IMG/VR virus record: IMGVR_UViG_3300044580_000075
Coordinates: 1-36,581 of that record
Direction: 5' to 3' (one strand)
From: a virus
Taxonomy: Duplodnaviria; Caudoviricetes
DNA: 36,581 nucleotides
The first letter of the stretch is position 1, and the number at the start of each line of letters is the position of its first letter. Under the pieces are notes generated by a model, which worked only from the letters and a program-made list of their open reading frames with translations, searched no databases and had not been told where the DNA came from. This document shows positions 1-36,581 of this stretch, one piece after another. Made by a program: the position numbers and the translations under genes.

Positions 1-195
1 TTGGATTACGAGAACTTTAAGAACCTTGATTAATAAGGGTTAATTTGAGTTCGTGAAATATCCGTTTACTCAATCGGTAGTTAATCAAGATAAATCGTGA
101 TTAAGTACGATTAGACGATTAATTGCGATTAACTCGAATTGAACTTGATAAACTTGAAATCAGTCAAGATCACTCATGAGCCCATCTGACAAACA

Positions 196-224
196 TTGAT
201 TAAATAATTAGATAGTAGTATAAC
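196..224 (+). promoter_or_regulatory. sigma70-type promoter for the early (+ strand) genes
   Basis: TTGATT (196-201), 17 nt spacer, TATAAC (219-224) in an AT-rich non-coding stretch upstream of the first ORF with a ribosome-binding site. Confidence 0.6.
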
Positions 225-319
225 AATAAAACAATTGAACAAACTTCGTTCTTAATCTAGTCAACTGGTGACTTGATGAGTGAACGATTAAACGACCGGA
301 GGGTCAAAGGAGATTGAGT

Positions 320-566
320 ATGAATACCAACACAAACGGAGTTGAGATTGGTGATCGAGTAGAGATGATTGATGAACCTAGAGTTAAGGGAGTGGTTGTA
401 GGATTGGCGATGTTATCTACTATTGCAGATGATATGTTACCTGAGGAAAAAAGATTCGGTATTTGCGTATGTAAGAATACTTGAGGATCCTGAGTTCGGT
501 AGTGTTGATGAGGTGTGTAATACATCAGTGTTGAATCTTAGACTTATCGAAAAGTTTAAAGAATAA
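320..566 (+). pseudogene. small SH3-like hypothetical protein split by a frameshift in an A6 run (or a sequencing error)
   Basis: AAGGAG RBS then ATG at 320. The frame stops at 482-484. Deleting one A from AAAAAA (447-452) gives an 81 aa ORF (...EIGDRVEMIDEPRVKGVVVG...EEKDSVFAYVRILEDP...LIEKFKE) ending at TAA 564-566, just before the RBS of the next gene. Confidence 0.6.
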
Positions 567-7302: not shown

Positions 7303-7638
7303 ATGAGTAAACGAGAAGAGGCTCCAGGAATACTTATCGGAGTTTTGATTCAAACAGCAGATGGAAAGGATCTTACTCGTAAGGCGATTAAGTTTCCCTT
7401 AACGGATAAGAAGTATCAGGAGTTGCTTGAGCATCAGAGCTTGATCGTAAGTCTTGCGAAGGGATTGCTTACGCTCGCAGGACAGGCTATGGAAAGGTTC
7501 GCTACGACTGAGCTTTCCGAGCTTAAGGAGCAAGCCTTACGAGCAATGGAGGAAGCTAAGCAGTCGAAAAGCAAATCGCAGATTTTTCGAGAAGCAATAA
7601 TCAATGCAGGAAAGGGAGTCGCCAATGCTGACAATTAA
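7303..7638 (+). CDS. hypothetical protein
   Basis: 111 aa, AAGGAGGT RBS. Confidence 0.75.
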   Translation: MSKREEAPGILIGVLIQTADGKDLTRKAIKFPLTDKKYQELLEHQSLIVSLAKGLLTLAGQAMERFATTELSELKEQALRAMEEAKQSKSKSQIFREAIINAGKGVANADN

Positions 7639-8011
7639 TGTCGAGACACATTTCGATGCTGCACATTTCCTTCCCGAACCTTACGAAGGGAAGTGTAGTC
7701 GGATGCACGGCCATAGGTATCGGTTGATCGTAGGATGGCTAGTTAAATCACTTGATCAGGTAGGAATGGCCGTTGACTTCGGAAGGATCAAAGAGAGGCT
7801 TGAAGCTTACCTCGCATCCTATGATCACTCAGTCTTAAACACAACAATGAATGAGCGACCAACAGCTGAGGTAATGACTCTTCAACTTGCAAAGGAGCTT
7901 GACGAGATTACACAAGCTGAATTTCCTGCTCTCCTCTTATTCTCGGTTAAGCTTTATGAGACTCCAGAATGCTTTGCGATCTGGATGCTTGATCGGGAGG
8001 AGACAGCATGA
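7625..8011 (+). CDS. queD: 6-carboxy-5,6,7,8-tetrahydropterin synthase QueD
   Basis: FDAAH, CSRMHGHRY, VDFG, DH..LN, PTAE, ETP; start likely ATG 7625. Confidence 0.95.
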   Translation: MLTINVETHFDAAHFLPEPYEGKCSRMHGHRYRLIVGWLVKSLDQVGMAVDFGRIKERLEAYLASYDHSVLNTTMNERPTAEVMTLQLAKELDEITQAEFPALLLFSVKLYETPECFAIWMLDREETA

Positions 8012-8685
8012 GTGGGGGTAAGATCGATATAATCGAAATCTTCAACTCGATACAGGGTGAGGGGATGTTTGTAGGAACTCCTATGACATTTATTCGTCTT
8101 AAGAATTGCAACCTTCGATGCGAGTTTTGTGATACTCGTCCATGGGAGAAGGAATCAAGCAGGATGACTACTGATGAAATACTTCAAGCTTGTTGTCTTC
8201 TTAGCGAGGGACTTCTTCCTCATGTATGTATCACAGGTGGAGAGCCATTACTTGAGCCTTTACTTGAAGATCTACTTTGGGGGCTTCGAAGCCGAGGTGT
8301 TTCTGAAATGCATATCGAGTCGAATGGCTCAGATGATGTATGGAAGCACGGACTCGTTGAATACTGGCCTACCGGAAGCGTATCGATTACGTTAAGTCCT
8401 AAAACTCCTGAATGGTCCCTCAAAAGGATGTATGATAGCTCGTTAGCTGACCTCGTAACTGACATCAAGATCCTCGTCGACGAGAACGGTCCGAGGTATC
8501 CCCTCGAGCAATTTAAAGATTGGCATGGTGGAATCTACCTTCAACCAATCTCAGACCCTTCTCTCAGCATGATAGGAGAATTCGGGTATCTGAAAGAGCA
8601 ATATGAGCTGCTCAAGCCTTGGTTGTTCAGGTTTCCGTTCTGCTCGATGTCTTTGCAGATACATAAGCTTCTCGGAATAAGATAA
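8008..8685 (+). CDS. queE: 7-carboxy-7-deazaguanine synthase QueE (radical SAM)
   Basis: EIFNSIQGEG, FIRL, CNLRCEFCDT, TGGEP, ESNG, SPK, LQP, QIHK. Confidence 0.95.
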   Translation: MSGGKIDIIEIFNSIQGEGMFVGTPMTFIRLKNCNLRCEFCDTRPWEKESSRMTTDEILQACCLLSEGLLPHVCITGGEPLLEPLLEDLLWGLRSRGVSEMHIESNGSDDVWKHGLVEYWPTGSVSITLSPKTPEWSLKRMYDSSLADLVTDIKILVDENGPRYPLEQFKDWHGGIYLQPISDPSLSMIGEFGYLKEQYELLKPWLFRFPFCSMSLQIHKLLGIR

Positions 8686-8695
8686 AGGAGGACGA

Positions 8696-9466
8696 ATGAG
8701 TAAACTAACTGAAGCAAAAGATTCACTTAACATCGCGAAGAGGCGGATGATGCTCTTCTTCGGACCAGCGAAGTCAGGTAAGACGACCTTAGCATGTAAC
8801 CTTCTCGGCAAGGATAATACGGTCGTATTTGCGTTCGATCCTGACGGCGTGAAGTCAGTTCTTCCAATCGACGTCTTCTACATCGATCCCAAACGACCAT
8901 GGGAAGATACTCTCGACACTTTGAACGAGTTGCAGAAGCTGAAGGATAAGAAGAAATGCATAGTCGTAAGTGACCTCACCCAAGCTTCGAAGTTGTACTA
9001 TCGTACATCAGGAGACTTCAAAGACCCTCGTAAGACATACGGCATTGCAATTGATCGAATGATGCAGCTTATGGAGCAGCTGAAGCAAAACTTCAGGTGG
9101 GCGACTATTATCTTCGAAGCGGTTGATATGTACGTCGAAGACGAGCAGGAGAAGATTACGACCGCGTTGCCGAATGTAATCGGTAAGACTACTCTCGCTC
9201 CTCAGATCCCTATGATGGTTGATGACGTTCTGTATTTCAATCTTCCTAAGCAGATCAAGCAGAAGTCAGCTGATGGAAAGAGTATCGAGACAGTAGTTGA
9301 GCGAACTATTCTCACGGCCGCGGATGGATTTAAGCTTGCTGGGAATCGTATTAACAAAGCAGGCGAGACGGCTATACTCGACCTTAATGAGGAGGTCTCC
9401 ATCGGCCATAACGACTTCTCGAAGATCGAAGCTTTGAGGAAGAAATTCTTCCCGGAGGGTGTATGA
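8696..9466 (+). CDS. Sak4-like / AAA_24 P-loop recombinase ATPase
   Basis: Walker A GPAKSGKT near the N-terminus, FDPDG, strand VVSDLT at the Walker B position; context with SSB and exonuclease. Confidence 0.75.
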   Translation: MSKLTEAKDSLNIAKRRMMLFFGPAKSGKTTLACNLLGKDNTVVFAFDPDGVKSVLPIDVFYIDPKRPWEDTLDTLNELQKLKDKKKCIVVSDLTQASKLYYRTSGDFKDPRKTYGIAIDRMMQLMEQLKQNFRWATIIFEAVDMYVEDEQEKITTALPNVIGKTTLAPQIPMMVDDVLYFNLPKQIKQKSADGKSIETVVERTILTAADGFKLAGNRINKAGETAILDLNEEVSIGHNDFSKIEALRKKFFPEGV

Positions 9467-10050
9467 CAAGCGGAAGACACGTATTCGAAAGAAAGTTTGA
9501 TGGGAGTGACAGAAGCTACATTGCTAGCTTATTTAAGGGAATTATGGTCGCTCTTGGATGCAACGTCGACGACGATCCTAACTTTATAGATACGCCTATT
9601 CGATGGGCAAATTCAATCTGCGACCAGTTCGAACCTGAAAAGTGCAAGCTTACTACCTTTCCTCACGAAGACTACAGCGGCTTAATCACGCTTCATAAAC
9701 ACGAGTCGTGGACTCTCTGTCCTCATCATTTCGAACGAGTTAAGCTTATCTCGACGGTAAGCTACATCCCACGAAACGGAAAGGTCGTAGGAGCAAGTAA
9801 GCTTGCTCGTATCTGTAACATGTTCTCGAAAGGATGTATCATGCAAGAAACTTATACGCGAATGGTAGCCGACTTTATCATGAACGAGTTTGATCCTGAG
9901 GGAGTAGCTGTTCACGTGGAAGGATTTCACAACTGCATGCAGTGTCGAGGAGTAAGAACAAGTGGAAGTTTTATTACACGAGAGCTCAGAGGCTTATATC
10001 TGCACTCGCCTCAGACAAGAGAAGAATTCTTGTCAGACCTAGCAAGATAA
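9463..10050 (+). CDS. folE: GTP cyclohydrolase I FolE
   Basis: DTPIR, LCPHH, YIP, GASKLAR, QE, HNCMQCRG, REEF. Confidence 0.95.
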   Translation: MTSGRHVFERKFDGSDRSYIASLFKGIMVALGCNVDDDPNFIDTPIRWANSICDQFEPEKCKLTTFPHEDYSGLITLHKHESWTLCPHHFERVKLISTVSYIPRNGKVVGASKLARICNMFSKGCIMQETYTRMVADFIMNEFDPEGVAVHVEGFHNCMQCRGVRTSGSFITRELRGLYLHSPQTREEFLSDLAR

Positions 10051-10071: not shown

Positions 10072-10419
10072 ATGCCAGAAATAAATCCGGAAACAGATCT
10101 TAACCTTAAACTAAAGACAGCTTACGAAGCAGGTTACTCGCTAGGTGAGATGTCCAGAATGTTTAAGATGAGTGTTGGAGCGATGAGAAATCGCTTGGTA
10201 CTCATGGGAGTACAGATGAGAAGTAGAGGAGGACCTAACAACACGTTTAAGATTATTGATGCTTTACTTGCAGGAGAAGATGCTGAGCAAGTCCTTCGAA
10301 TCTTAACTGATAAAACAATCTCAATTGATAAGAAGGCTACTCTCCTTTGTGTGCATCCAAGTACGGTAAGGAGCTATATCAAGAACTTAAAGGAGGAGGT
10401 TGATGAACGAACTGTGTAA
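10072..10419 (+). CDS. helix-turn-helix DNA-binding protein (two HTH-like segments)
   Basis: YEAGYSLGEMSRMFKMSVGAMRNRL and SIDKKATLLCVHPSTVRSY. Confidence 0.75.
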   Translation: MPEINPETDLNLKLKTAYEAGYSLGEMSRMFKMSVGAMRNRLVLMGVQMRSRGGPNNTFKIIDALLAGEDAEQVLRILTDKTISIDKKATLLCVHPSTVRSYIKNLKEEVDERTV

Positions 10420-12736
10420 TCCTCAATGCAAGATGTATGTTCCTCTCGAACCTCAATGTCCTGGATTCTATCCTCGTAATTTAGATGAAGTCGAGGTCTT
10501 GTTTGTGGCGGAAGCTCCAGGTAGACAAGAAGTACTCGAACACAAGCCGTTAGTAGGCAGCGCTGGTAAAGTCTTATGGAAGGCGATGCACGAAAGCGGC
10601 TTCGCTTCTGTTTCGTTTGAGGGAGATAAATACACCTGGGCGTATGGATTGAACCTCCGTCCTATTAACGGAGTGGCTCTCGATAACGTCGTTCATTGCT
10701 ATCCTGGTAATCGACCACCTACCTACGCTGAGCGGATACATTGTGCGAGACATCTCGGAACAGCTTTAACCAATCTTAAGAACCTTCGTTTAATCGTAGC
10801 GCTGGGCGACACCGCATTCAATCACTTCACGAATGAGTCGAAGATACTCAAACGAAGAGGAATGCCTATCGTCCAATTCATTCCAGCCTTAGGTCGAGAG
10901 GTACCTCTCCTACCTATGCTTCATCCTTCCTTCATCTTACGTCAACGTCAGTGGTATGACACGTTCGTACGAGACCTACGCAAAGCGTACAAGATGTGGA
11001 AAGAAGGATTTCAACCATACGAGGTAGAAGCACTCGACCTAGATGAAGAAGCTGTTCGAGAACTTCTACGAACTGGATTTGCATTCGACATCGAGACGAC
11101 GGGCTTCTCCTTTATCGAAGAGAAGATTATCGGATGCTCGTTCTCAAACGGACGTAGACAAGCTTGGCATGCTTGGTATGATAAACCTCATGAGTGGCAA
11201 CTTGCAGTTCGATTGCTTGAATCAGATGCTTACAAGATAGCTCAGAACGGATGCTTTGACGTTCCGTTCTTGAAAGCTAAAGGAGTGAGGATTAATAAAG
11301 TTGAGTATGATACTTGCTACGCCCAGCATTTGATAAGTCCTGAGCTTCCATCCAATCTCGCGTTTATCTCTTCGTTATACACAAACTCTCCTTACTACAA
11401 AGAACAACGAGATGAGTTGATTGCTGGAAGACTTACACATGCTCAAATTAAGCAGTACTGCTGTAACGATTCGGAAGTAACTTACTCAAGCTTCCAGAAG
11501 CAGCGACTAGAGCTAGCTGAGGATCAGGAACTTACGAAGGTATTTAATACAATCGTAATGCCTTCGACTAAGGTTGCGAACAACTTGATTCTTAAAGGAG
11601 TCAAGATTGATCTCGAGGAGATCGAGAAGGTAAGAACTAATCTACAATCTATCGTTCTACCTATTCGTGAGGTGTTCGACAACTACGGAGTCAATCTTAA
11701 CGCTCCTGCGCAGGTAAAGCAATTGTTGACTACTATGAAAATGCCTGTAGCTGACACGTCCGCAGAAACTCTTCTTAAGCTCTACAAGCGTACCAATCAT
11801 CCTTTAATCCCATCCATCTTGAAGTACAAAAAATACAACAAAGTACTTAGCACCTTCATCGATGGGTTGAGTAAGCGACTCGATCCTAACGGCTTCTTGC
11901 ACACCAGCTATCGAGTAGACGGAACGAAGAACTCTCGCTGGAGTTCAAAGAAGCCAAACTTGCAAAACATTCCACCTGAGGTTAGGAAGTTATTTATTCC
12001 ATCCGCTCCAGGAAAGATATTCGTACAAGCTGACTACTCACGACTTGAGTTGTTTGTCGCAGGCGTGTTGTCGGAAGATTCGTTATTCCTTCACGACGTC
12101 GAGACTACTCCTATCCATGACGTAATGGCTGAGGAATTGTTTGGTGCTTCGTATACAAAGCATCAACGGTTGCTTGCTAAGACTGTCATCTTCGGAACAA
12201 TCTATGGTAGGTCAGCTAGAAGCATCGCAATTGCTTTTGGTATCTCAGTAGCGGACGCAGAACGAATCCAGCACACAGTCGCTCGGAAGTATCTTCGCTT
12301 AACTGCTTGGACAAAGATATCGTTAATGAAGCTTAAGCAAGACGGATATCTTCGCTCTGCGTTTGGACGAATCCGTTACTTCGATGAGGGTAATCTCGCT
12401 TCCGACGCAGCGAATTATCCTGTACAGACAGCTGCAGGTGACATCACGAACACCTCTCTTATCTTACTCGACGACTTACTCGACCTTCGCTTGACAGTTC
12501 ATGACTCAATTGTTGCTGAATGCTACGAACACGAACGAGATCAAACCGCAAAGACTCTTCAATCAATCATGAGTCGACCCATCCCAGAGTTGAAGGGTTA
12601 TCAATTCCCAGTATCAGTCGAATACGGACCTACTTGGGGAGACTTAACCGAGTGGGTTCCTTCAAAGCTTAAAGACGAAACAGACATAATCGACCAGTTC
12701 AAAACTCTAGAGGAGGAAGACAATGAGCGAAATTAA
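10400..12736 (+). CDS. polA: family A DNA polymerase with N-terminal family-4-type uracil-DNA glycosylase domain and 3'-5' exonuclease
   Basis: UDG: AEAPG..E, VGSAG, NVVHCYP.NRPP, ALG, HPS. Exo I FDIET, Exo II QNGCFD, Exo III YCCND. Pol: PNLQNIP, motif A DYSRLE, B R...KTVIFGTIYG, C VHDS. Confidence 0.95.
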   Translation: MMNELCNPQCKMYVPLEPQCPGFYPRNLDEVEVLFVAEAPGRQEVLEHKPLVGSAGKVLWKAMHESGFASVSFEGDKYTWAYGLNLRPINGVALDNVVHCYPGNRPPTYAERIHCARHLGTALTNLKNLRLIVALGDTAFNHFTNESKILKRRGMPIVQFIPALGREVPLLPMLHPSFILRQRQWYDTFVRDLRKAYKMWKEGFQPYEVEALDLDEEAVRELLRTGFAFDIETTGFSFIEEKIIGCSFSNGRRQAWHAWYDKPHEWQLAVRLLESDAYKIAQNGCFDVPFLKAKGVRINKVEYDTCYAQHLISPELPSNLAFISSLYTNSPYYKEQRDELIAGRLTHAQIKQYCCNDSEVTYSSFQKQRLELAEDQELTKVFNTIVMPSTKVANNLILKGVKIDLEEIEKVRTNLQSIVLPIREVFDNYGVNLNAPAQVKQLLTTMKMPVADTSAETLLKLYKRTNHPLIPSILKYKKYNKVLSTFIDGLSKRLDPNGFLHTSYRVDGTKNSRWSSKKPNLQNIPPEVRKLFIPSAPGKIFVQADYSRLELFVAGVLSEDSLFLHDVETTPIHDVMAEELFGASYTKHQRLLAKTVIFGTIYGRSARSIAIAFGISVADAERIQHTVARKYLRLTAWTKISLMKLKQDGYLRSAFGRIRYFDEGNLASDAANYPVQTAAGDITNTSLILLDDLLDLRLTVHDSIVAECYEHERDQTAKTLQSIMSRPIPELKGYQFPVSVEYGPTWGDLTEWVPSKLKDETDIIDQFKTLEEEDNERN

Positions 12737-13589: not shown

Positions 13590-14855
13590 GTGGGAGGATT
13601 AAACCTTCCAGTTAAGGGGTGGCTTGCAGACTATCTCACGTATAGTCGAAGCACTCCTAAGCAGGAGACTGAAATACCAATTGAGTTTAACTTATTTACT
13701 GGAATTGCTACAATCGCTGCTTCTCTTCAACGAAACGTATGGGTGTCGAGAGGCTTGTACGAATTGTATCCTGCTATGCTTGTCGTGTTAATTGCTCCGA
13801 CTGGCAAAGGAAAGAAGACTTCTGCGATTAATCTAGGAGCTAAGCTTTTAGTCAAAGCAGGTGTGACTAAGATCATCTCCGAGCAGATTACTCCTGAAGC
13901 TCTCGTACTTGCTCTCAACAACGCTCAGCCTATTCTTAAGAATGGAACGATTCAACCAGGAGCTAGAGACGCTACAGGCTTGCTTATCCTTCCTGAGCTT
14001 TCAGTCTTCCTCGAGAAGAGAGATTACAAGACAGGACTTGTTCCGCTTATTACTCGTCTCGCAGATGCGCCTGACGAATGGTCGAGTGAGACTATCTGTC
14101 GAGGAGAAGTTAAACTCACCAACGTAGCCTTATGCATGCTTGGCGGATCTGCTCCTTCATGGCTCGTAGGCTCCATTCCAACTGAAGCTTTCACAGGTGG
14201 CTTCATGGCTCGTTTCTTATTCGTAGTATCGGATGGGGCAGCCGTTCCTGTTCCTAAGCCACCTCCATTCGATAAAGTCTTGCAAGGCGAGCTTATCATG
14301 CGGTTGAAGTTCTTCAACACTCTTCGAGGAGAAGTGGTAGTAAATGAAGAAGCAGAGGAGTACTTCGCTAAGTGGTATCGTGGATTCTATCATCGAAGAA
14401 GTGTAGATGAGAAGCGAGCTGCCTATCAAGAACGTAAGCATGACCACCTAATGCGTATCGCGATGATACTAGCCATCTCAGAAGATAGGATGATTATTCA
14501 GCTTGAAGACATTCGACGAGCTACTAATCTACTCAACTACGTCGAAGAAGGAATGTTCTCGTTGTTCGGCGAGATCGAACGAGGTCAGTCAGCTGTCGGT
14601 GAAGCTATCCAAATGATACTTGCAATCATTAAGAAGAGCAAGTCGATTAGTCATGAAGACCTCCTTCGAATCGTAGTCGGTAGAGGTATGTCAGCTTCAA
14701 CTGTCTCAGAAGTAATCGATTCGTTAAGAGGTGGTAGATTTATCGAAGTAACGGGTAGTATAGGTAAAAAAGCATCAATCACATATCATTATAGATCAGA
14801 AGCACCATCAAGCAAGGAGGAAGTACATGAGCGAGATAGAAGTGAAGGAGTGTAG
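13590..14855 (+). CDS. DUF3987-type P-loop ATPase/helicase with C-terminal winged helix
   Basis: IAPTGKGKKTSA Walker A, TPEAL, PELSVFL Walker B-like, GFMARFLFV arginine finger. Confidence 0.75.
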   Translation: MGGLNLPVKGWLADYLTYSRSTPKQETEIPIEFNLFTGIATIAASLQRNVWVSRGLYELYPAMLVVLIAPTGKGKKTSAINLGAKLLVKAGVTKIISEQITPEALVLALNNAQPILKNGTIQPGARDATGLLILPELSVFLEKRDYKTGLVPLITRLADAPDEWSSETICRGEVKLTNVALCMLGGSAPSWLVGSIPTEAFTGGFMARFLFVVSDGAAVPVPKPPPFDKVLQGELIMRLKFFNTLRGEVVVNEEAEEYFAKWYRGFYHRRSVDEKRAAYQERKHDHLMRIAMILAISEDRMIIQLEDIRRATNLLNYVEEGMFSLFGEIERGQSAVGEAIQMILAIIKKSKSISHEDLLRIVVGRGMSASTVSEVIDSLRGGRFIEVTGSIGKKASITYHYRSEAPSSKEEVHERDRSEGV

Positions 14856-15225
14856 TAATTGTGGACAAGCAAGCTGTAAGCGAGACAGTTGGATTAAGGA
14901 TAAGAATGGAGAACCTATTTGTTGGGTTGCTAAGCAAGTCGCGACTAAGCTAGACGTAGACAAGGATAGATGGGACCTTCTCCAATGGAATGCCGTTCAC
15001 GATGTCGTACGAGTAGCTACCTTCGGCTCAAAGAAGTACGGTGATAATAACTGGAAGCAGGGAGGAGGCTTAGATAAGCTTCGATTATTTGCTGCTTGTA
15101 TGCGCCACGTCTACGCTTGGTTAGGAGGTCAGCCAGACGATCCTGAATCTGGCCTTCCTCACCTTGCGCATGCAGCTTGGAACTTACTTGCCATCCTTGA
15201 ACTAGACGTAAAAGAGAAAGACTAA
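14827..15225 (+). CDS. dATP/dGTP diphosphohydrolase domain protein (former DUF5664) with a short Cys-rich N-terminus
   Basis: K.D..K.RWDLL, V..FG..KYG..NW, A..RH...W..G...DPESGLPHLAHA.WN. Confidence 0.85.
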   Translation: MSEIEVKECSNCGQASCKRDSWIKDKNGEPICWVAKQVATKLDVDKDRWDLLQWNAVHDVVRVATFGSKKYGDNNWKQGGGLDKLRLFAACMRHVYAWLGGQPDDPESGLPHLAHAAWNLLAILELDVKEKD

Positions 15226-18200
15226 TCTCCAAATCCTATCGCTGACTTAAACTTACGAGAGGGTCGTATATTTTCGACTCTCTCTTTTTCTTTTCTGATC
15301 TCCTTAAGCTTCTCGATGTAATCCTTCCTAGCTTCCTGCCTCACTTGCTGATTTTTCTTCTCATCCGTAGTAGTTCCGAACTGAGCAATTTCTCCGTATG
15401 CTTTTTTACGAGCAAGTGACTGCTGCTTCATAAGCTTACCCTTCCATCTTCGATCGACTTCAGAAGCAGTTAAAGGCATTATTTTTAATCCAAGCTCAGC
15501 GAGTAAGGCCTGCGCAGGAGTACGTCCTGACTTCGCTTCTCGCATAACTTTATAAATATCCGTCGCCGGAGCCATCACTGCTGGAATCATAGACTGTGCT
15601 ACACTCAACAACGCCTTACTCGATGCCGTCGGAATACTATCCATCTCAGAATTCCATATAGGCTTACCGTTAAACCCAACATTTGTCGCAAGCGAAGCTG
15701 CAGTAGCAAATAAAGGATTAGCAAGCATAATCTTTCCTACTCCTGGAAGTCTCGGCCCCATCGCTTCTTTAGCTCCTCCAGCTAGCCCATATATATCTCC
15801 CCAAGGAAGAATGTAAGTCATATCGAGCCACTGCATACGTCCTCTCGAATCCTTCCAAGGCATGAGTAGATACTTTCCTTGAGCTACCGACGCAGGAAGC
15901 TTCGCCTTCAGCTGTTCGAACTGATCGAAGTTTATTCCTTGAGCATTCATAGCTCCTACTTGCCAAGCCCACATACCCATTTGTAGGCTGAGAAGTCTCC
16001 AAGGAGCTTGTACTAACGACTTCGCAATCAACGGCATAGCTTTATACGTAAACGTTATAAACGGAGCACCCACCCAAGAGTTTCTCCATCTGCGAATAAA
16101 CGGACTTACATCGTTGTAGTTAAAGGTAGACTCCATCGCAGACCGAGCAGCTTCCTTTCTGCTCAATCCCTTAACGTCTCGTAGATACTTATACTTCGCT
16201 ATCTTTGCCCACTGCTCTTCCATCTCGTAAGCGGAAGCCATCTTCCTTCCAATCTTCTTAACTCCATACTTTCCAGCTTCGAGCAATCCAAGCATTCCTT
16301 CTTGATGCTTCATTCGAAGGATAGGTTCGAGATGTTTTAACTCACTTGAAGTAAATGTACCGATCGTCAACCCATCCTCAATTGCTTCATTCATAAACTG
16401 CTTATACTTCTCAGGATTACGAAGAATCCTAACCGAATCTTTATAAGCTAACCAAGCTCGTGGGTCATATAAAGACATCCCATGCTCGGTTCCCATATGA
16501 TTCAAAATCACGTTCGAGTAAATATTTCTCATATGCGTACGAGGATTAGCTACGGTCGCTCCAAACTTAAACCAATTCAACGCCGTTTGGCTAAGGCCTC
16601 CCGTCTGGCTAGGAATCACCATCGTTTCGAGTTCGAAGAAAGCATCCTGATTAAGCCATTTGTTTGCAAGCATTCCATACTTCTCGACGTTGTCAGGAAC
16701 CTTGATGTAGTGAACGACCTTCCCAGCTTCATCTGCAACACTAGCTACGGCAGTATGTCCTCGTTGAAGAGGCTGAAGTATCTTCGGTCCGAGAGTTACT
16801 TCTCGTATATCTTTAACTCTTCCTGAGGCAGTTAAAGCTTTCATAGCTGATTCGTCCATACATATTTTGTTATCAGCACTTAAGGTTCTGAAGGCGTCGG
16901 ACATCATCAAGTCACTTTTCGCTGTCACATACTGCGCATGGCTTAGCGTAGCCATATCTACGATCGGATCAAGTTCGTCAATTAATTCCTGAGGCAGATT
17001 ATTAAGCTTTCGATATCTTGCAGTAGACATCGCTAGCATCTGCATACTTGAGAGTTTCTGAGCCGCATCGTAACTAGCTTTATAATCTGCGTACTTAAGG
17101 CGAATAGCTTCTGGTAGCTGATTCCAATGCTTCTGATAGATTCGTGAAGTATACGTATCGAAGTTATTCATATGCGTATCCCATTTAAGGAACATCTTCT
17201 TCAGCGAATCAGTAACCTGTACAGGCGTACCTTGTCTGTTTACCTCATCAAGTAAGTCTTCAACCTTAACTCCTTTCTTATCGGCAATTGCTGTAAACTC
17301 TTTTACAACTGGACTTACCACTCCATTCTCGACTGCTTTAAGATTACGAGCATCGTCAAGCGTAATTACCTTTCGTCGATTTGTTTCATCCATATATCCA
17401 AAGACAGGAAGATGTCTTTCCATTCCTTCCGTAACAGCCCGTCGTTGAGTCTCTGCCTTACGAAAGCCTAAGAATTTAAGACCTATCGCTTCGTCTTCAG
17501 GATCCGTCGAACGAAGCCAATCAAGAGCTCCTTTCTCTCCATCTATCATAGACTGATTAGCTTTCTTAAGCCAAATCGTTTGCTTCCCTTGAACCTCTCG
17601 TTGTACTTTCTGACTCGCTTCAAGGCTTACTTTCTTCCTCATCGAATCGAAATGAACATACGCATCAAGCATCTCCTCACGAGTTTGCTCAGGCAAGCCT
17701 TCAAGATCGATTCCACGCTCAAGCCAATCTTCTCTACGAGTCTCGAGCATCTTTTTAAGCATATCATTCTTAGCAGGGTCTTTTGCGACTACATCTATTT
17801 TCTCTGCAAGCTCTCGACCTTGCTGACGAATGATTGACAGATCACGAGCTACGTTTTCGATCAGCTGCTGACCTTCAGGAGTAGTCTTCCTCAACCTATT
17901 CGAAGCAGGTTCAAGAAGCTGTCGCCAGTTAAGCTCACCACTCTGACCGATATACTGTGATCCTCCAATCTTAGGAACCTTCGGATGAATCGTAGTCGGA
18001 ACATACTCAAGTCCTTTCAAGCCAAGCTCGCTTAGATGCTCCCATAACTTAATCAGAGGCTCCTTAAAAGCTTTCTGAGACGCATTAATTACCGGCCGAC
18101 TTAACGCTCCCATAAACATAAACGGTAAGCCAATATTCGAAACTAATGAAAGGCCAGGTGATCCTCCTGTCATCAAATCGAATGGAATACCTACCATCGC

Positions 18201-20153
18201 AGCTTCCCAAGTTGCTCGAGCAGCTTCTCCTGACTTGTATAAGTCTAGCCAGCTCCTTCCTTTATTAATCGTCTGGCCGAGTATTTCCATCTCGCCTAAG
18301 GGACCTCTCGAGATAGCTAGCCTCCCAGCATTTGCCGCCTTAAACAAAGCGGAATAACCAATCGCCCAAGTAGCTTGCTCAGCAATCGTTCCAGGAAAGA
18401 TAGGCATATCAGGAAATGCAGCTTCCATCATTCGTGTTGTACGCTCAAGTGAAGTATTCTGCTGATCATACCAGTCAGCTGCAGCTACGTACGTCGGAGA
18501 AGTTACCGCATGAGCTACCTTTTGAAAGATGTGTTTACGATTCAAAGCTCGATCAACGGGAGTCATCTTAGCCGAGATAGCTAACTGACTTCCTATTCCA
18601 GGCTTGATTAAAGCAGCTGCTGCAGGCGATACAATCGGCTGGTCAGCATTCATCTCGTTTACGACTATCTTCTCGTTAAGTTGATTAAGCTTATCTCCTA
18701 CGTAATCAAGAGCCTTACCCAATCCTGGAGTGTTTACTCTTGGAATTAACGATTTGATAAAAGGAGATATATTTGCTACTCCTTGCAAACCAAGAGTAGC
18801 TATCACTTCAGCTGAGGCTGCCTTACCAGCATTTGCGTTTCGTATTCCTTCTGATACTTGCTTAAACGCCGGATGTAAGGCGGTAGGAATTTTCTGCTCA
18901 GGTAGCTTCGGAAGATTCAACTCAGGCACGTATAAAGGATCTTCCTCGGCCATAATCTCATTTATAGGATCTGGAAGGATACTTTCTGCTTTAGCTTCTC
19001 TGCTAGCTGCTAGCATACCTGCTCCAGCTAGGGTACCCGCTACTCCAAGCTTCCACACAGGTCCTATAAATTTCTTAGTCTCAGGATCAGCTAAGCGAGC
19101 AAGAACGTTTCCGCTACCCATCGTAATTCGAGGACCAATATCTTCAACAGCTATTTGACCAGTCTTGCTAAGCTGTTCATGTCCTTTCGGAGTAAGTAAC
19201 TGAACTACATCAATCCCTCTTCCACCGCTTGCTTTTCCACCAAGCTTCATTGCAAGTCCACGATTCATAGCTCGATAGATTGCTTCGTCAATTAATCCAA
19301 ACTGGTCGGGGAACTTTCCCTTCCAGTGGTCAACAAACTGCTCATCTGTAAGATGAGTCTTCGAAAGCTTCTCGGGAGGCAGGCCCAACAACTGTCTTCG
19401 TATGATATTAATTCTCGATTGAGAGTACTCCGAAGCTACTCCTCCCAAACTCTTCATCAAGGCGTAGGGGTTGTTTAAGATATCTCTCGGATCCATCTGC
19501 TTAGCTTCTTCACGCGTCATAGGAGCCTGCTTACCATACAACGATTCGATAGGTGCGTTAGGATCTTGCAACGTCTTAAGCGTCTTAATCCTACTCATCT
19601 TATCTTTCCAAGCGAGAGTAGCCTGCTGCCTAACCCAGTTGTATCCCTTCGAGTTCTTACTCGGATCAATCATATGAGCAGCAAAGACCTTAAGCTGGTC
19701 AGGCGTAAGACGAGCAACTCCTTCACTTGAAGCTGGAACGGTATATAAAAGTTTCTGTCCTCGAGCTGCTACCTTCTCGAGATCAGCTCGCGGCTTTCTT
19801 ACTGACCCTTCATATCCTGAAGGCTTCCATATCTCATCCATTGTTCGAGGAATGGTACCTGGTCGTAGATTTTCTCCTGCTTGCTCGAAACGATATCCTA
19901 AGCCTGTATTCGACATTACTTCCTGAGCTAGCCCTTCAGCTTTATCACCAACTTGAAAATTAAACAACCTATCAGGATATAAATCTCTGGGAGCAGACTT
20001 AAGCATATCAACTGCAACGTTCCAAGCTTCTGGCTCTCTCTTTGCAACTTTACCAAACCTCCTTAGCAAGGATTCGAGAACTGGATCGTTAGTCTTAACA
20101 GCTTCGAATATACGCCCTAGAGCATCCTCAACTGCAGGCGAAAACTTAGCCAT
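15222..20153 (-). CDS. large internal virion / DNA ejection protein
   Basis: 1643 aa, mainly helical, last gene of the structural block; NP.TH.RN..SN and PF..F.Y segments like those in large podovirus ejection proteins. Confidence 0.7.
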   Translation of the reverse strand: MAKFSPAVEDALGRIFEAVKTNDPVLESLLRRFGKVAKREPEAWNVAVDMLKSAPRDLYPDRLFNFQVGDKAEGLAQEVMSNTGLGYRFEQAGENLRPGTIPRTMDEIWKPSGYEGSVRKPRADLEKVAARGQKLLYTVPASSEGVARLTPDQLKVFAAHMIDPSKNSKGYNWVRQQATLAWKDKMSRIKTLKTLQDPNAPIESLYGKQAPMTREEAKQMDPRDILNNPYALMKSLGGVASEYSQSRINIIRRQLLGLPPEKLSKTHLTDEQFVDHWKGKFPDQFGLIDEAIYRAMNRGLAMKLGGKASGGRGIDVVQLLTPKGHEQLSKTGQIAVEDIGPRITMGSGNVLARLADPETKKFIGPVWKLGVAGTLAGAGMLAASREAKAESILPDPINEIMAEEDPLYVPELNLPKLPEQKIPTALHPAFKQVSEGIRNANAGKAASAEVIATLGLQGVANISPFIKSLIPRVNTPGLGKALDYVGDKLNQLNEKIVVNEMNADQPIVSPAAAALIKPGIGSQLAISAKMTPVDRALNRKHIFQKVAHAVTSPTYVAAADWYDQQNTSLERTTRMMEAAFPDMPIFPGTIAEQATWAIGYSALFKAANAGRLAISRGPLGEMEILGQTINKGRSWLDLYKSGEAARATWEAAMVGIPFDLMTGGSPGLSLVSNIGLPFMFMGALSRPVINASQKAFKEPLIKLWEHLSELGLKGLEYVPTTIHPKVPKIGGSQYIGQSGELNWRQLLEPASNRLRKTTPEGQQLIENVARDLSIIRQQGRELAEKIDVVAKDPAKNDMLKKMLETRREDWLERGIDLEGLPEQTREEMLDAYVHFDSMRKKVSLEASQKVQREVQGKQTIWLKKANQSMIDGEKGALDWLRSTDPEDEAIGLKFLGFRKAETQRRAVTEGMERHLPVFGYMDETNRRKVITLDDARNLKAVENGVVSPVVKEFTAIADKKGVKVEDLLDEVNRQGTPVQVTDSLKKMFLKWDTHMNNFDTYTSRIYQKHWNQLPEAIRLKYADYKASYDAAQKLSSMQMLAMSTARYRKLNNLPQELIDELDPIVDMATLSHAQYVTAKSDLMMSDAFRTLSADNKICMDESAMKALTASGRVKDIREVTLGPKILQPLQRGHTAVASVADEAGKVVHYIKVPDNVEKYGMLANKWLNQDAFFELETMVIPSQTGGLSQTALNWFKFGATVANPRTHMRNIYSNVILNHMGTEHGMSLYDPRAWLAYKDSVRILRNPEKYKQFMNEAIEDGLTIGTFTSSELKHLEPILRMKHQEGMLGLLEAGKYGVKKIGRKMASAYEMEEQWAKIAKYKYLRDVKGLSRKEAARSAMESTFNYNDVSPFIRRWRNSWVGAPFITFTYKAMPLIAKSLVQAPWRLLSLQMGMWAWQVGAMNAQGINFDQFEQLKAKLPASVAQGKYLLMPWKDSRGRMQWLDMTYILPWGDIYGLAGGAKEAMGPRLPGVGKIMLANPLFATAASLATNVGFNGKPIWNSEMDSIPTASSKALLSVAQSMIPAVMAPATDIYKVMREAKSGRTPAQALLAELGLKIMPLTASEVDRRWKGKLMKQQSLARKKAYGEIAQFGTTTDEKKNQQVRQEARKDYIEKLKEIRKEKERVENIRPSRKFKSAIGFGD

Positions 20154-33061: not shown

Positions 33062-33328
33062 TTAGTTTTTTATTAAAGCTTTTAAGCCTGTTGGCTTTGC
33101 CGGAGGAACTGAATCGATTACAATCGAAATCGGGTCAGTTAACTCAGATTCATTTCCTGAGGAATCTACCGCTGATACTCGATAGGCATACGTACCATCA
33201 ATTCGAGAAAGAGTAAGTAGATGAATAGGATGAGCAATCGTATCGATTACAGTTCCGTTCTCGTATACCTTATACGAAGCTATGTCTGGTTCGGTATTAA
33301 GATTCCAACTTATTTCGATTGTCTTCAC
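33062..33328 (-). CDS. stand-alone fibronectin type III domain protein
   Basis: SW..N.E.D.A.YKVY...Y.YRVSAVD.SGNES...D.VPP..P.GL. Confidence 0.85.
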   Translation of the reverse strand: MKTIEISWNLNTEPDIASYKVYENGTVIDTIAHPIHLLTLSRIDGTYAYRVSAVDSSGNESELTDPISIVIDSVPPAKPTGLKALIKN

Positions 33329-34226: not shown

Positions 34227-34510
34227 CCGAGAAGTCCTCCTAGTATCTTTGCGCCTGCTGCAAGGGCTCCAGCTACCACTGCCGTTATCACAATAGCAAT
34301 AATCGCATCAACTTGCTTCTTAACTGGATTAAACTCTGCCTTAGTAGTAAAGTTATTCTGAAGGTTATTGTTTAACTTATCTACCGTAACAGTAAGCGCA
34401 TCCATACTCTTCTCGTTGTTATCGAGTTTCTCGGAAAGCACTGCCACCTTAATCGCGAGTTCAGTCATATCAACGTCCACTATACAAGCTCCAAGTGAGG
34501 CAAGTCCCAA
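34223..34510 (-). CDS. coiled-coil + C-terminal TM protein (holin/antiholin-like)
   Basis: Heptad N-terminus, EF.PV, hydrophobic C-terminus; true start probably GTG 34480 or ATG 34468. Confidence 0.65.
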   Translation of the reverse strand: MGLASLGACIVDVDMTELAIKVAVLSEKLDNNEKSMDALTVTVDKLNNNLQNNFTTKAEFNPVKKQVDAIIAIVITAVVAGALAAGAKILGGLLG

Positions 34511-34875
34511 CCATCGGGGTCAGTGTCCATATTCCAGTTACAGCCAACGCGAACCTTAATTCCCTTCGCCGCCGCAATAGCTACTGCCATGCCCATCATG
34601 TAGAAGAATGCCGCTCGATTGTCCCACCTTATGTGTGGCTCTTTATCAAACCAAGGCGCAAGGTCAACTGCTCTAGCTGGCAAGTGATTATGCTTCGACT
34701 TTGGCCAAGGAGTCTTCGACTTACCCTCTGCAACAGCTTTGTTCTGATCTGCTTCTCCCCTGAAGGTACAAAGTACCTTACAGTTGAAAATCTTAATAAG
34801 CTCGTTGCAGATATACTGCAAGTCAGGATGCGCAGCTTTTAATAGTCGAGTAGACTCCTCTCCAAACTTAGGCAT
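34480..34875 (-). CDS. endolysin, peptidase M15 family (L-Ala-D-Glu peptidase-like)
   Basis: HPDL, R....Q, SKH, AVD, W...D.PH.EL zinc-peptidase motifs. Confidence 0.9.
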   Translation of the reverse strand: MPKFGEESTRLLKAAHPDLQYICNELIKIFNCKVLCTFRGEADQNKAVAEGKSKTPWPKSKHNHLPARAVDLAPWFDKEPHIRWDNRAAFFYMMGMAVAIAAAKGIKVRVGCNWNMDTDPDGWDLPHLELV

Positions 34876-35519
34876 TAGGCCTCACCGTCGTCGTATTCAA
34901 CCTTGAACGAATCTGAGTCGACTGTGTTCTCGTCGATATCAACACTGAAGGTAACTTCGATTGTAGAATCGACTGCTACATCCTCATCCTCATCTACCGG
35001 ATCGGTAGATGCCACTGTCATCGTATCACCAATCGTAAGGAAGGTAAGTACGACAGCTTCAGCAAGTGTCTCTTCGTTTGTTCCCTTCACAGCTACGCCG
35101 ATAGTGACTTGGATATTCTGGTTGTAGCCCAAGTCGCTTGTCGGAGTGAATGTAACCACATTATCCACTACCGCAAACGATCCAGCGATTACGGAAGACG
35201 TATCCGCATCGATAATCACGATATTAGTTGCATTAACTGTTGTCTCGTCAATATCAGCGCTGAACACCATCTCGATTGTAGTATCGACTGCAACCTCAGT
35301 CGCATCGTCACTTGGAGTCGATTCGCTCAGAAGAAGCACCGCATCAATCGTTGTGAACGAAAACTCATAATTTGTTGCAAGTCGCTGATTTGCAGTTCCT
35401 CTTACTCCTGTCGTAACCGTTACAAGTATCTCTGTATTGTTGGGCAGATCACTTGTTGGAGTAAAGGTAACAACTCCGTTTACAACTCCGAAAGTCCCTG
35501 GTATAGCTACTCTTGCCAT
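34875..35519 (-). CDS. Big_5 Ig-like protein, permuted: C-half / full domain / N-half
   Basis: aa 61-163 form a complete Big_5-like domain; aa 1-58 repeat its second half and aa 166-214 repeat its first half. Confidence 0.85.
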   Translation of the reverse strand: MARVAIPGTFGVVNGVVTFTPTSDLPNNTEILVTVTTGVRGTANQRLATNYEFSFTTIDAVLLLSESTPSDDATEVAVDTTIEMVFSADIDETTVNATNIVIIDADTSSVIAGSFAVVDNVVTFTPTSDLGYNQNIQVTIGVAVKGTNEETLAEAVVLTFLTIGDTMTVASTDPVDEDEDVAVDSTIEVTFSVDIDENTVDSDSFKVEYDDGEA

Positions 35520-35533
35520 CTCTCTTTTCCTTA

Positions 35534-36493
35534 TTAGGACAAAGGTCCTATCATCTTATTTCCGTCCGCGTCTTCAGTCGTGGGTTCGACTGTAGTTACC
35601 TTAAAGTCATCAAGCCACATATTTTGATCTGCTGGACATCCATCATTCCAGTAGCTCATTACGTTCACTCGATCGGCATAGTCATTAGCATTACGAAGCG
35701 TTGGAGCAATTAAATTCTCGTAAACTAAGTCGCCGTTCATCCATATACGAGACTCTCCTGCTGTGTGATGAAGCTTAACATAAAGCTCTAGGCAAACCTG
35801 CTCACCCTTAGGAATGATAGTGGAAGTTGTTACTTCAGTATTAGCGACTTCCGGTTCGTTGGAGTATCGAATCTTTCCCCCAAATGGAGAGCTAGTCTCG
35901 CACTCTTCCATAATTGATACGTATCCAATATTCCCTCCAACGGAATCAGCTACGTGAATTCTCAGTATCTTAACAGGAGCATAAGGATTACTTAACCTAG
36001 GAACCCAACTCCACCCTGCGGGGAAGTAGTAGTATCCACGCACCCAGATCGATTGCCCTTCTACTACATGTTCAGGAAAGTTAAGTAACCCTGTGCATGC
36101 ATCGTATCCAGTATCTCCAAGTGTCCACGCCATCTTACAAGACTTAGAGCCAGAGTTAACCTGGCCACTATTAGCTACGTTATCGAACGTTGTAGCAGAG
36201 CCCGTATCCGGATCTGAGAAAGCATCTTCCTGAGGAGTTGAATGAGCATTATTGGCTAGCTGCCCAATTGTACCATTCTCAAATCCAGCAATCATTGACC
36301 AGCCGGCTGCGGGACTTCCTACGGTGTCGAAGTTAAACGCATAGCTAGTTGCTAGACGTTGGTTAGCCACTCCTCGAAGGCTCGTATTTATAGTAACTTC
36401 GATCGTAACCCCAGAAGGAAAGTCACTTGTAGGAGTAAACGTAACCACTCCATCTACTACTACATACGATCCTGAGATTGGAATTTTAGCCAT
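35534..36493 (-). CDS. Ig C-half fused to a beta-jelly-roll (polysaccharide lyase / LamG-like) domain
   Basis: aa 1-57 are 34/57 identical, ungapped, to aa 1-57 of the downstream protein; then FE.G, W.R...YFP.G, K..R, E.YV.., R.W.NG, DD motifs. Confidence 0.75.
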   Translation of the reverse strand: MAKIPISGSYVVVDGVVTFTPTSDFPSGVTIEVTINTSLRGVANQRLATSYAFNFDTVGSPAAGWSMIAGFENGTIGQLANNAHSTPQEDAFSDPDTGSATTFDNVANSGQVNSGSKSCKMAWTLGDTGYDACTGLLNFPEHVVEGQSIWVRGYYYFPAGWSWVPRLSNPYAPVKILRIHVADSVGGNIGYVSIMEECETSSPFGGKIRYSNEPEVANTEVTTSTIIPKGEQVCLELYVKLHHTAGESRIWMNGDLVYENLIAPTLRNANDYADRVNVMSYWNDGCPADQNMWLDDFKVTTVEPTTEDADGNKMIGPLS

Positions 36494-36500
36494 CTATTAC

Positions 36501-36581
36501 TTACTGTAGTGTCCACTTAAGGAAGTAGCCGTCCGGGAATGAGACTGTAACGCCCCGCCCTGCCGGTGAGAGCGCAGGTGA
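36501..36581 (-). CDS. 3' end of a gene running off the window
   Basis: Open frame ...SPALSPAGRGVTVSFPDGYFLKWTLQ* ending just upstream of the ATG at 36493. Confidence 0.5.
   Translation of the reverse strand, partial: SPALSPAGRGVTVSFPDGYFLKWTLQ

Follow-up and report, generated by a model that had tools for sequence, protein, structure and literature searches.

Two neighbouring genes at one end of a phage contig encode proteins with incomplete immunoglobulin (Ig)-like domains of the Big_5 family. The contig, IMG/VR virus record IMGVR_UViG_3300044580_000075, comes from an uncultured phage and comprises 36,581 nt, the whole of which is referred to here as the window. The gene order on the minus strand is an open reading frame (ORF) cut by the contig end, the gene of a 319 amino acid (aa) protein (35534-36493), the gene of a 214 aa protein (34875-35519) and an endolysin gene (34480-34875; phrog_465, E 1.3e-25), which lies directly downstream of the 214 aa gene and whose ATG overlaps the 214 aa stop codon (TAATG). 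A six-frame search of the record revealed four Big_5 matches, three of them in the 214 aa protein and one starting the 319 aa protein. The half-domains at the ends of these two proteins, and the possibility that they complete each other between chains, are the subject of this analysis.

Comparison with Pfam revealed that the 214 aa protein matches Big_5 (PF13205) with an E value of 2.1e-31 and a score of 109.2 bits (gathering cut-off, 23.6 bits), divided over three stretches. The middle unit, residues 58-162 (35034..35348, minus strand), is a complete Big_5 Ig-like domain that covers profile positions 8-105 with 60.8 bits (match 35034-35327). The units at the two ends are incomplete, measured against the ~105 positions of a full domain. 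Residues 1-57 (35349..35519, minus strand), here termed C1, correspond to an orphan C-terminal half (profile 47-105; match 35349-35525), and residues 163-214 (34878..35033, minus strand), termed N3, to an orphan N-terminal half (profile 5-51; match 34878-35021). The three units are directly contiguous, without linkers. By its profile matches, the 214 aa protein is an ordinary tandem Big_5 array shifted half a domain in phase.

Self-alignments were scored against 300 shuffles. The z scores were 16.9 for C1 and 8.8 for N3 against the whole domain, and 31.6 for C1 against the N-terminus of the 319 aa protein, compared with 0.5 and 0.7 for control alignments of N3 with C1 and with the orphan half of the 319 aa protein, respectively. 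Residue 6, in C1, aligns to residue 111 of the whole domain, and residue 214, the last of N3, aligns to residue 109. The end of N3 and the start of C1 thus fall within 3-4 positions of one loop, with complementary profile ranges of 1-51 and 49-105, and the two halves are near-equal in size, at ~52 residues for the N-half and ~57 for the C-half. An earlier reading of the DNA, made from the letters alone and here called the sequence-only reading, had proposed both the half-whole-half layout and a split at one point of the intact copy; the profile ranges, shuffle scores and aligned cut points bear this out.

Structure prediction with AF2, using an alignment of six sequences, gave a model of the 214 aa protein with a mean per-residue confidence (pLDDT) of 51.3 and a predicted template modelling score (pTM) of 0.45. 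The middle domain reached pLDDT values of 63-83 (residues ~80-150), and the orphan halves 29-51, despite containing the best-conserved columns. Foldseek matched the middle unit to Ig-like domains of TssM, ECAM MG1, SbsC and CopC, with a root-mean-square deviation of 1.9-2.6 Å over 86-90 columns, confirming at the level of the model that it is an ordinary Ig-like sandwich. The ESM Atlas held no model of the 214 aa protein, and a PDB sequence search with alignment A2 returned 0 matches. In the modelled whole domain, the cut loop connects strand 100-104 to strand 113-118. In the standard Ig strand order, a cut at this place divides the domain into three N-side and four C-side strands, interleaved in both sheets; this reasoning uses the general topology and the order of strands in the DSSP string of the AF2 model, rather than its coordinates. 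Because the strands interleave in both sheets, neither half should fold alone, and an N-half would therefore be expected to pair with a C-half.

The 319 aa protein begins with an orphan Big_5 C-half of its own at residues 1-57 (36323..36493, minus strand; profile 47-105 or 52-105, match 36323-36499). Of these 57 residues, 34 are the same at the start of the 214 aa protein, by exact count and without gaps, and a hidden Markov model (HMM) of C1 recognised the segment with an E value of 1.2e-25. Taken alone, the 319 aa protein scores 21.7 bits against Big_5, slightly below the cut-off, and the assignment is safe because of the similarity to C1. An HMM search detected no N-half in this protein. 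Both points, the shared C-half and the missing N-half, agree with what had been read from the sequence before.

The remainder of the 319 aa protein, residues ~60-319 (35537..36316, minus strand), constitutes a head domain. It has no Pfam match beyond Big_5 (E up to 0.1) and none in PHROG, NCBIfam or PDB sequences; a PDB sequence search with alignment A4 returned chance matches alone, at E values of at least 0.49. In the ESM Atlas, polysaccharide-lyase clusters matched the head with a feature score of 0.94, and a PL14 cluster with a template modelling (TM) score of 0.76, the neighbours of the head being the jelly rolls PL14 (PF21294), PF14099 and PF21340. The AF2 model of the 319 aa protein (pLDDT 36.4, from a 2-sequence alignment) was too poor for use of its fold. 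The head is probably a polysaccharide-lyase-like β jelly roll, and the jelly roll suspected earlier is thereby supported by one source, the likeness in the ESM Atlas.

The gene order bars a repair of the split domain by read-through, as had been argued: since the endolysin gene follows N3 directly, with a stop/start overlap, read-through cannot restore the N-half. Read-through or frameshift repair was rejected, as the 319 aa and 214 aa genes lie in different frames and, downstream of N3, no frame encodes a C-half.

A frequent origin of partial domains at gene ends is breakage of a longer gene, and a multi-Big_5 gene disrupted by misassembly, frameshift or deletion was considered as the origin of this layout. 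A search for proteins of similar length returned four, of which three have 214 aa and are 96, 78 and 75% identical to the window's protein; P0004, the fourth, has one whole domain and is unrelated. A protein of 212 aa that is 45% identical (P0006) was reached via a search with the 319 aa protein, and a metagenome contig, L005, holds a further copy. The resulting set of 214-type proteins has six members (the window's own, P0001, P0002, P0003, P0006 and the L005 copy). All six consist of a C-half, a whole domain and an N-half with the same ends, at 45-96% identity, and the frame, at 214 aa or 212 aa in P0006, recurs across independent samples. The sequence-only reading had named unsplit homologues as a sign of assembly artefact or gene decay; every 214-type homologue found is split. 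Upstream of the 319 aa ATG lie two in-frame stop codons, and the frame of the 214 aa gene is open for only 12 codons ahead of its ATG. The closest longer proteins (755-1776 aa, 25-33% identical) are mostly arrays of near-whole domains; no longer relative found starts with a C-half, and there was no fused close relative among them. The phase shift therefore appears specific to this phage family.

Conservation of the 214-type gene was examined half by half, with N2 and C2 denoting the two halves of the whole domain. Mean pairwise identity among the six homologues is 77% for C1, 70% for N3, 65% for C2 and 58% for N2. Synonymous sites have reached saturation in the comparison of the window with L005 (proportion of synonymous differences, pS, ~0.7), and the proportion of nonsynonymous differences (pN) is 0.09 for C1, 0.107 for N3, 0.157 for C2 and 0.24 for N2. 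These values indicate purifying selection on the 214 gene, acting most strongly on the two orphan halves. Because the layout recurs and is under such selection, artefact and decay are excluded for practical purposes, and a broken longer gene retains only a very slight chance.

Seven orphan C-halves from four kinds of protein were aligned (A3). Between distinct proteins and lineages, their mutual identity is 46-65%, compared with 22-53% to the internal C-half, and they have in common the signature RG-x-x-N-x-RLAT, which the internal C-half does not contain. Together with the C1 HMM matches, the alignment reveals a conserved N-terminal module common to several head proteins, and the mutual likeness of the orphan C-halves is what would be expected if all of them fit one partner. 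The two C-half coding stretches have a nucleotide identity of 59%, which makes recombination between them unlikely. Two further candidate contigs were discarded: L007, from the genome contigs, has a chance match to the signature in a pilin-like ORF, and L006 is an unrelated high-GC bacterial contig.

The L005 contig provides a second view of the locus. Its order is a 5'-cut ORF with a C-half and Laminin_G_3 (E 5.6e-12), a 307 aa protein with a C-half and a head distantly resembling the 319 aa head, the 214 aa protein and the endolysin. At least two genes combining a C-half with a lectin-like part therefore lie upstream of the L005 214 gene, and a pairing of C-half-plus-head genes with a 214-type gene, for which other genomes were to be searched, recurs here. 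This layout fits orphan C-halves acting as docking modules for exchangeable heads. Runs X1-X3, from two studies (labelled bioreactor and lagoon metagenomes), contain the 214 gene at ~90-96% nucleotide identity over 34885-35523. Their coverage is mainly of the 214 gene, and their contigs diverge immediately on both of its flanks, which fits a conserved connector with variable neighbours. The upstream loose end of one run resembles, by eye, the end of the L005 307 aa gene.

Six-frame searches of the window and L005 with N3 and C1 HMMs and a motif regular expression detected no orphan N-half besides the C-terminus of the 214 aa protein. The ORF at the window's end comprises the last 26 codons of a gene (36504..36581, minus strand), with a stop codon at 36501-36503 that lies 7 nt ahead of the ATG of the 319 aa gene, according to the translation and sequence of the window end. 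Since this open frame runs off the contig end, the contig is cut within a gene of the same operon, which could encode a further head protein or an anchor. Judged by eye, the stretch 36504-36581 seems more GC-rich than the window average of ~44%.

Since the head proteins have a C-half and no N-half, and the C-terminus of the 214 aa protein supplies the sole N-half found, N3 is most simply read as completing the C-half of a head protein in trans. The terminal N3 would then complete, between chains, the C-half that starts lyase- or lectin-like proteins, and possibly also C1 of another 214 aa copy. The 214 aa protein would then be a split-Ig connector, or an extender, that carries interchangeable heads active on glycans. 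As the units follow one another without gaps, like those of a normal tandem array, inter-chain pairing would restore a straight rod of Ig domains, nicked in the composite domain, with the head in the position of the next domain. We judge the chances of this reading to be about even.

A different use of the same halves would be closure in cis, with the 214 aa protein as a closed two-domain monomer in which N3 and C1 make up a circularly permuted Ig domain. Such a protein could have arisen by duplication followed by truncation at both ends, and the C-halves of the heads would dock elsewhere, for example on an anchor beyond the contig end. In favour of closure, N3 and C1 complement each other exactly and are conserved together within one chain, their termini would meet at a hairpin loop, and the gene cut by the contig end could encode the real partner of the heads. 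With one intervening domain and no linkers, however, closure would call for two tight U-turns and antiparallel side-by-side packing, judging from Ig geometry. It would also leave the head C-halves that share the C1 signature without a partner in either locus. AF2 produced no confident closed fold, the halves scoring well below the middle domain in a model from the same alignment, which is a weak point with six sequences. We regard closure in cis as unlikely, while taking it seriously as an alternative to completion in trans.

The conserved module at the N-terminus of the heads also invites an explanation that needs no N-half. The 57-residue C-half would be an independent attachment or oligomerisation module that binds one virion site, comparable to the conserved N-terminal peptides of secondary tailspikes, and N3 would either do something else or persist as a tolerated remnant. 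Several proteins that otherwise differ but begin with one conserved module follow the logic of anchor-branched receptor-binding protein (RBP) systems (PMC6872550), and the failure to find an N-half anchor in the window or L005 agrees with this explanation. N3, however, is kept with the same end in all six proteins and has the second-lowest pN of the four halves, and is therefore not a remnant; four strands out of an interleaved sandwich would be unlikely to form a stable unit by themselves. In HMMER scans against Pfam and PHROGs, the late genes showed no T4gp10-like or other known branching domain, in an incomplete genome and with no profile-profile search made. We find this explanation doubtful, and somewhat less probable than closure in cis.

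If N3 does complete C-halves in trans, copies of the 214 aa protein might go further and form an open-ended polymer, as the sequence-only reading had proposed. In this extension, the N-half of each copy would enter the C-half of the next, giving a self-polymerising shaft, a continuous tandem-Ig rod nicked in every second domain. A C-half with a lyase or lectin head would cap the free N-half and end growth, and the ratio of shaft to head protein would set the length of the fibre and the identity of its tip. This would be a genetically split, half-domain form of pilus-like donor-strand assembly, taking place in the cytoplasm of the infected cell without a chaperone or usher. Open-ended polymerisation is less likely than trans-complementation, and we hold it as a tentative extension only.

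Several points weigh against completion of the head proteins by N3. Pairing between chains is a prediction from the sequences. The genes adjoin the lysis cassette, not a tail module, and a virion role is therefore an assumption; a soluble lyase complex released at lysis is conceivable. The low confidence of the orphan halves in the AF2 monomer (pLDDT 29-51) neither supports nor excludes self-closure, and with six sequences it is at most a hint that the halves are unsatisfied within one chain. The family is tiny, with 6 proteins among 5.8 billion clusters, and no relatives were found in the phage collection (tblastn with both proteins), the IMG/VR viral contigs or the genome contigs. An anchor ending in an N-half, which the earlier reading had expected, was found in neither the window nor L005, the upstream gene being cut by the contig end. 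Orphan C-halves outnumber N-halves by 2:1 in the window and by at least 3:1 in L005, so that one C-half stays unpaired unless an anchor exists. The gene context comes from two loci plus a 30-base loose end in one run, and the lyase-like assignment of the 319 aa head, with the ESM Atlas as its single source, is a lead only. Taken as a whole, the earlier interpretation is partly supported.

If the halves do pair between chains, they would form a very compact natural plug-and-socket, of ~50 residues per side, by which a phage hangs interchangeable glycan-binding or glycan-cutting heads on a connector. A protein that carries both plug and socket is, for that reason, a candidate for a self-assembling rod whose length is set by a capping subunit. 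The half-domain form would join the donor strands of pili and the hairpin of phage Tuc2009 as modes of inter-chain Ig completion. It would help to explain the swapping of receptor-binding or depolymerase modules among uncultured phages, and would offer a natural split-domain pair for protein engineering.

The record is linear, with a CheckV completeness estimate of 79%. Early and replication genes occupy the plus strand over 1-15.2 kb, and the minus strand carries a long late operon that includes the 319 aa, 214 aa and endolysin genes. Downstream of the endolysin gene, the operon encodes an XhlA-like protein of 95 aa and a protein of 154 aa, and the lysis region also contains a holin with three transmembrane segments. 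An Ig/FN3-like protein of 88 aa (33062-33328, minus strand), adjoined by a protein of 209 aa, is encoded between the holin and the gene preceding the terminase. Such a protein is unusual content for a lysis region, and its copy in L005 (3329-3661, plus strand) has a hydrophobic, signal-like N-terminus. The operon continues with the large terminase, a P22/SU10-type portal, a scaffold protein and the major head protein, then a cement-like protein and an SU10-type adaptor, followed by further virion proteins. One of these, a protein of 1643 aa (15222-20153, minus strand) without a Pfam or PHROG match, may have an internal virion role, serve in ejection or form a fibre. Comparison of the terminase with the phage collection gave best matches of <30% identity. 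Because of the gene content of its late operon, the phage looks podovirus-like, and it appears to have no close cultured relative.

Other features of the window lie apart from the split-domain locus. Close together on the plus strand are a QueD-like 6-pyruvoyl-tetrahydropterin synthase gene (7604-8011; E 7e-27), a QueE-like gene of the radical S-adenosylmethionine type (8008-8685) and a GTP cyclohydrolase I gene (9463-10050; E 3e-31), a trio that looks like a 7-deazaguanine (preQ0-type) DNA-modification pathway. The plus strand also encodes a 132 aa protein with the N-terminal domain of a dATP/dGTP diphosphohydrolase (14827-15225; E 2e-27) and a 778 aa fusion of a uracil-DNA glycosylase (UDG)-superfamily domain, a 3'-5' exonuclease and a family A DNA polymerase (10400-12736); these two proteins fit a phage with modified bases. 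The first 500 nt of the window (1-500) are rich in AT and, in all frames, in stop codons. GATTAA-like words recur there, and the region may act as an origin, as a site of packaging or in regulation. Closure of the contig into a circle was rejected, as no terminal repeat joins the ends and the left end is stop-rich.

Among known systems, the chaperone-usher pili (Fim, Pap, Caf1) offer a general parallel. Each incomplete Ig-like fold in these pili is completed by the neighbouring subunit, giving a head-to-tail fibre with a distinct tip adhesin, and the 214 aa and 319 aa proteins are predicted to relate to each other in a similar way. Pilus subunits, however, donate a single strand, whereas the cut here falls in the middle of the domain and leaves halves of ~52 and ~57 residues. 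Pili also require a periplasmic chaperone and an usher. No chaperone or usher Pfam family was found among the 44 window ORFs scanned (in sets of 8, 17 and 19), and no signal-peptide-like N-terminus was seen by eye among the translations; the phage proteins would assemble in the cytoplasm. In three-dimensional domain swapping and circular permutation, of which the intertwined CD2 dimer and tandem-domain swapping are examples, an Ig fold can be rebuilt from N- and C-terminal halves that come from different chains or stand in permuted order. Domain swapping differs in that it concerns alternative states of whole domains, whereas the halves described here are genetically separated and conserved so. 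Cohesin-dockerin cellulosomes recruit carbohydrate-active modules to a scaffold by plug and socket, and the 214 aa protein would resemble an adaptor scaffoldin with one plug and one socket; the folds and the binding mode are unrelated, and the analogy is one of logic alone.

Adaptor- or anchor-branched RBP systems (K1-5 gp37, G7C gp66/gp63.1 and Klebsiella phages) dock their heads via conserved N-terminal peptides, with T4gp10-like domains and short peptides of 7-29 residues, and their head genes are mosaic (PMC6872550). The likeness lies in a small adaptor or anchor to which exchangeable depolymerase heads attach, each through its conserved N-terminal module; the socket and plug proposed here differ in being two halves of one Ig fold.

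The closest comparison is with the baseplate of the Lactococcus phage Tuc2009. In its crystal structure, BppU ends in a 25-residue hairpin that completes a sheet in the C-terminal sandwich of BppA, a protein with a carbohydrate-binding module, and the BppU-BppA composite domain resembles a titin Ig domain (PMC4742702). The likeness lies in fixing an accessory protein of a phage to a structural protein by inter-chain completion of an Ig-like sandwich, a completion that is predicted for the proteins described here, as is the carbohydrate-active nature of their heads; at the sequence level, the match extends to one chain ending and another beginning with complementary sandwich parts. The sequence-only reading knew of no phage appendage built in this way. 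We found no description in the literature of a split Big_5 or half-Ig phage fibre, and to that extent the statement stands; inter-chain Ig completion as such is already precedented in phages by the Tuc2009 structure. Compared with Tuc2009, the donated part is not a 25-residue hairpin, the cut instead leaving near-equal halves of ~52 and ~57 residues between the strands labelled C and C'. The incomplete part stands at the N-terminus of the head proteins, whereas in BppA it belongs to the C-terminal sandwich, and binding by the phage proteins is inferred. What distinguishes the present system is thus the near-equal halves, the Big_5 family, the presence of both complementary halves in one subunit, the several heads per locus and a gene order in which the heads precede the connector.

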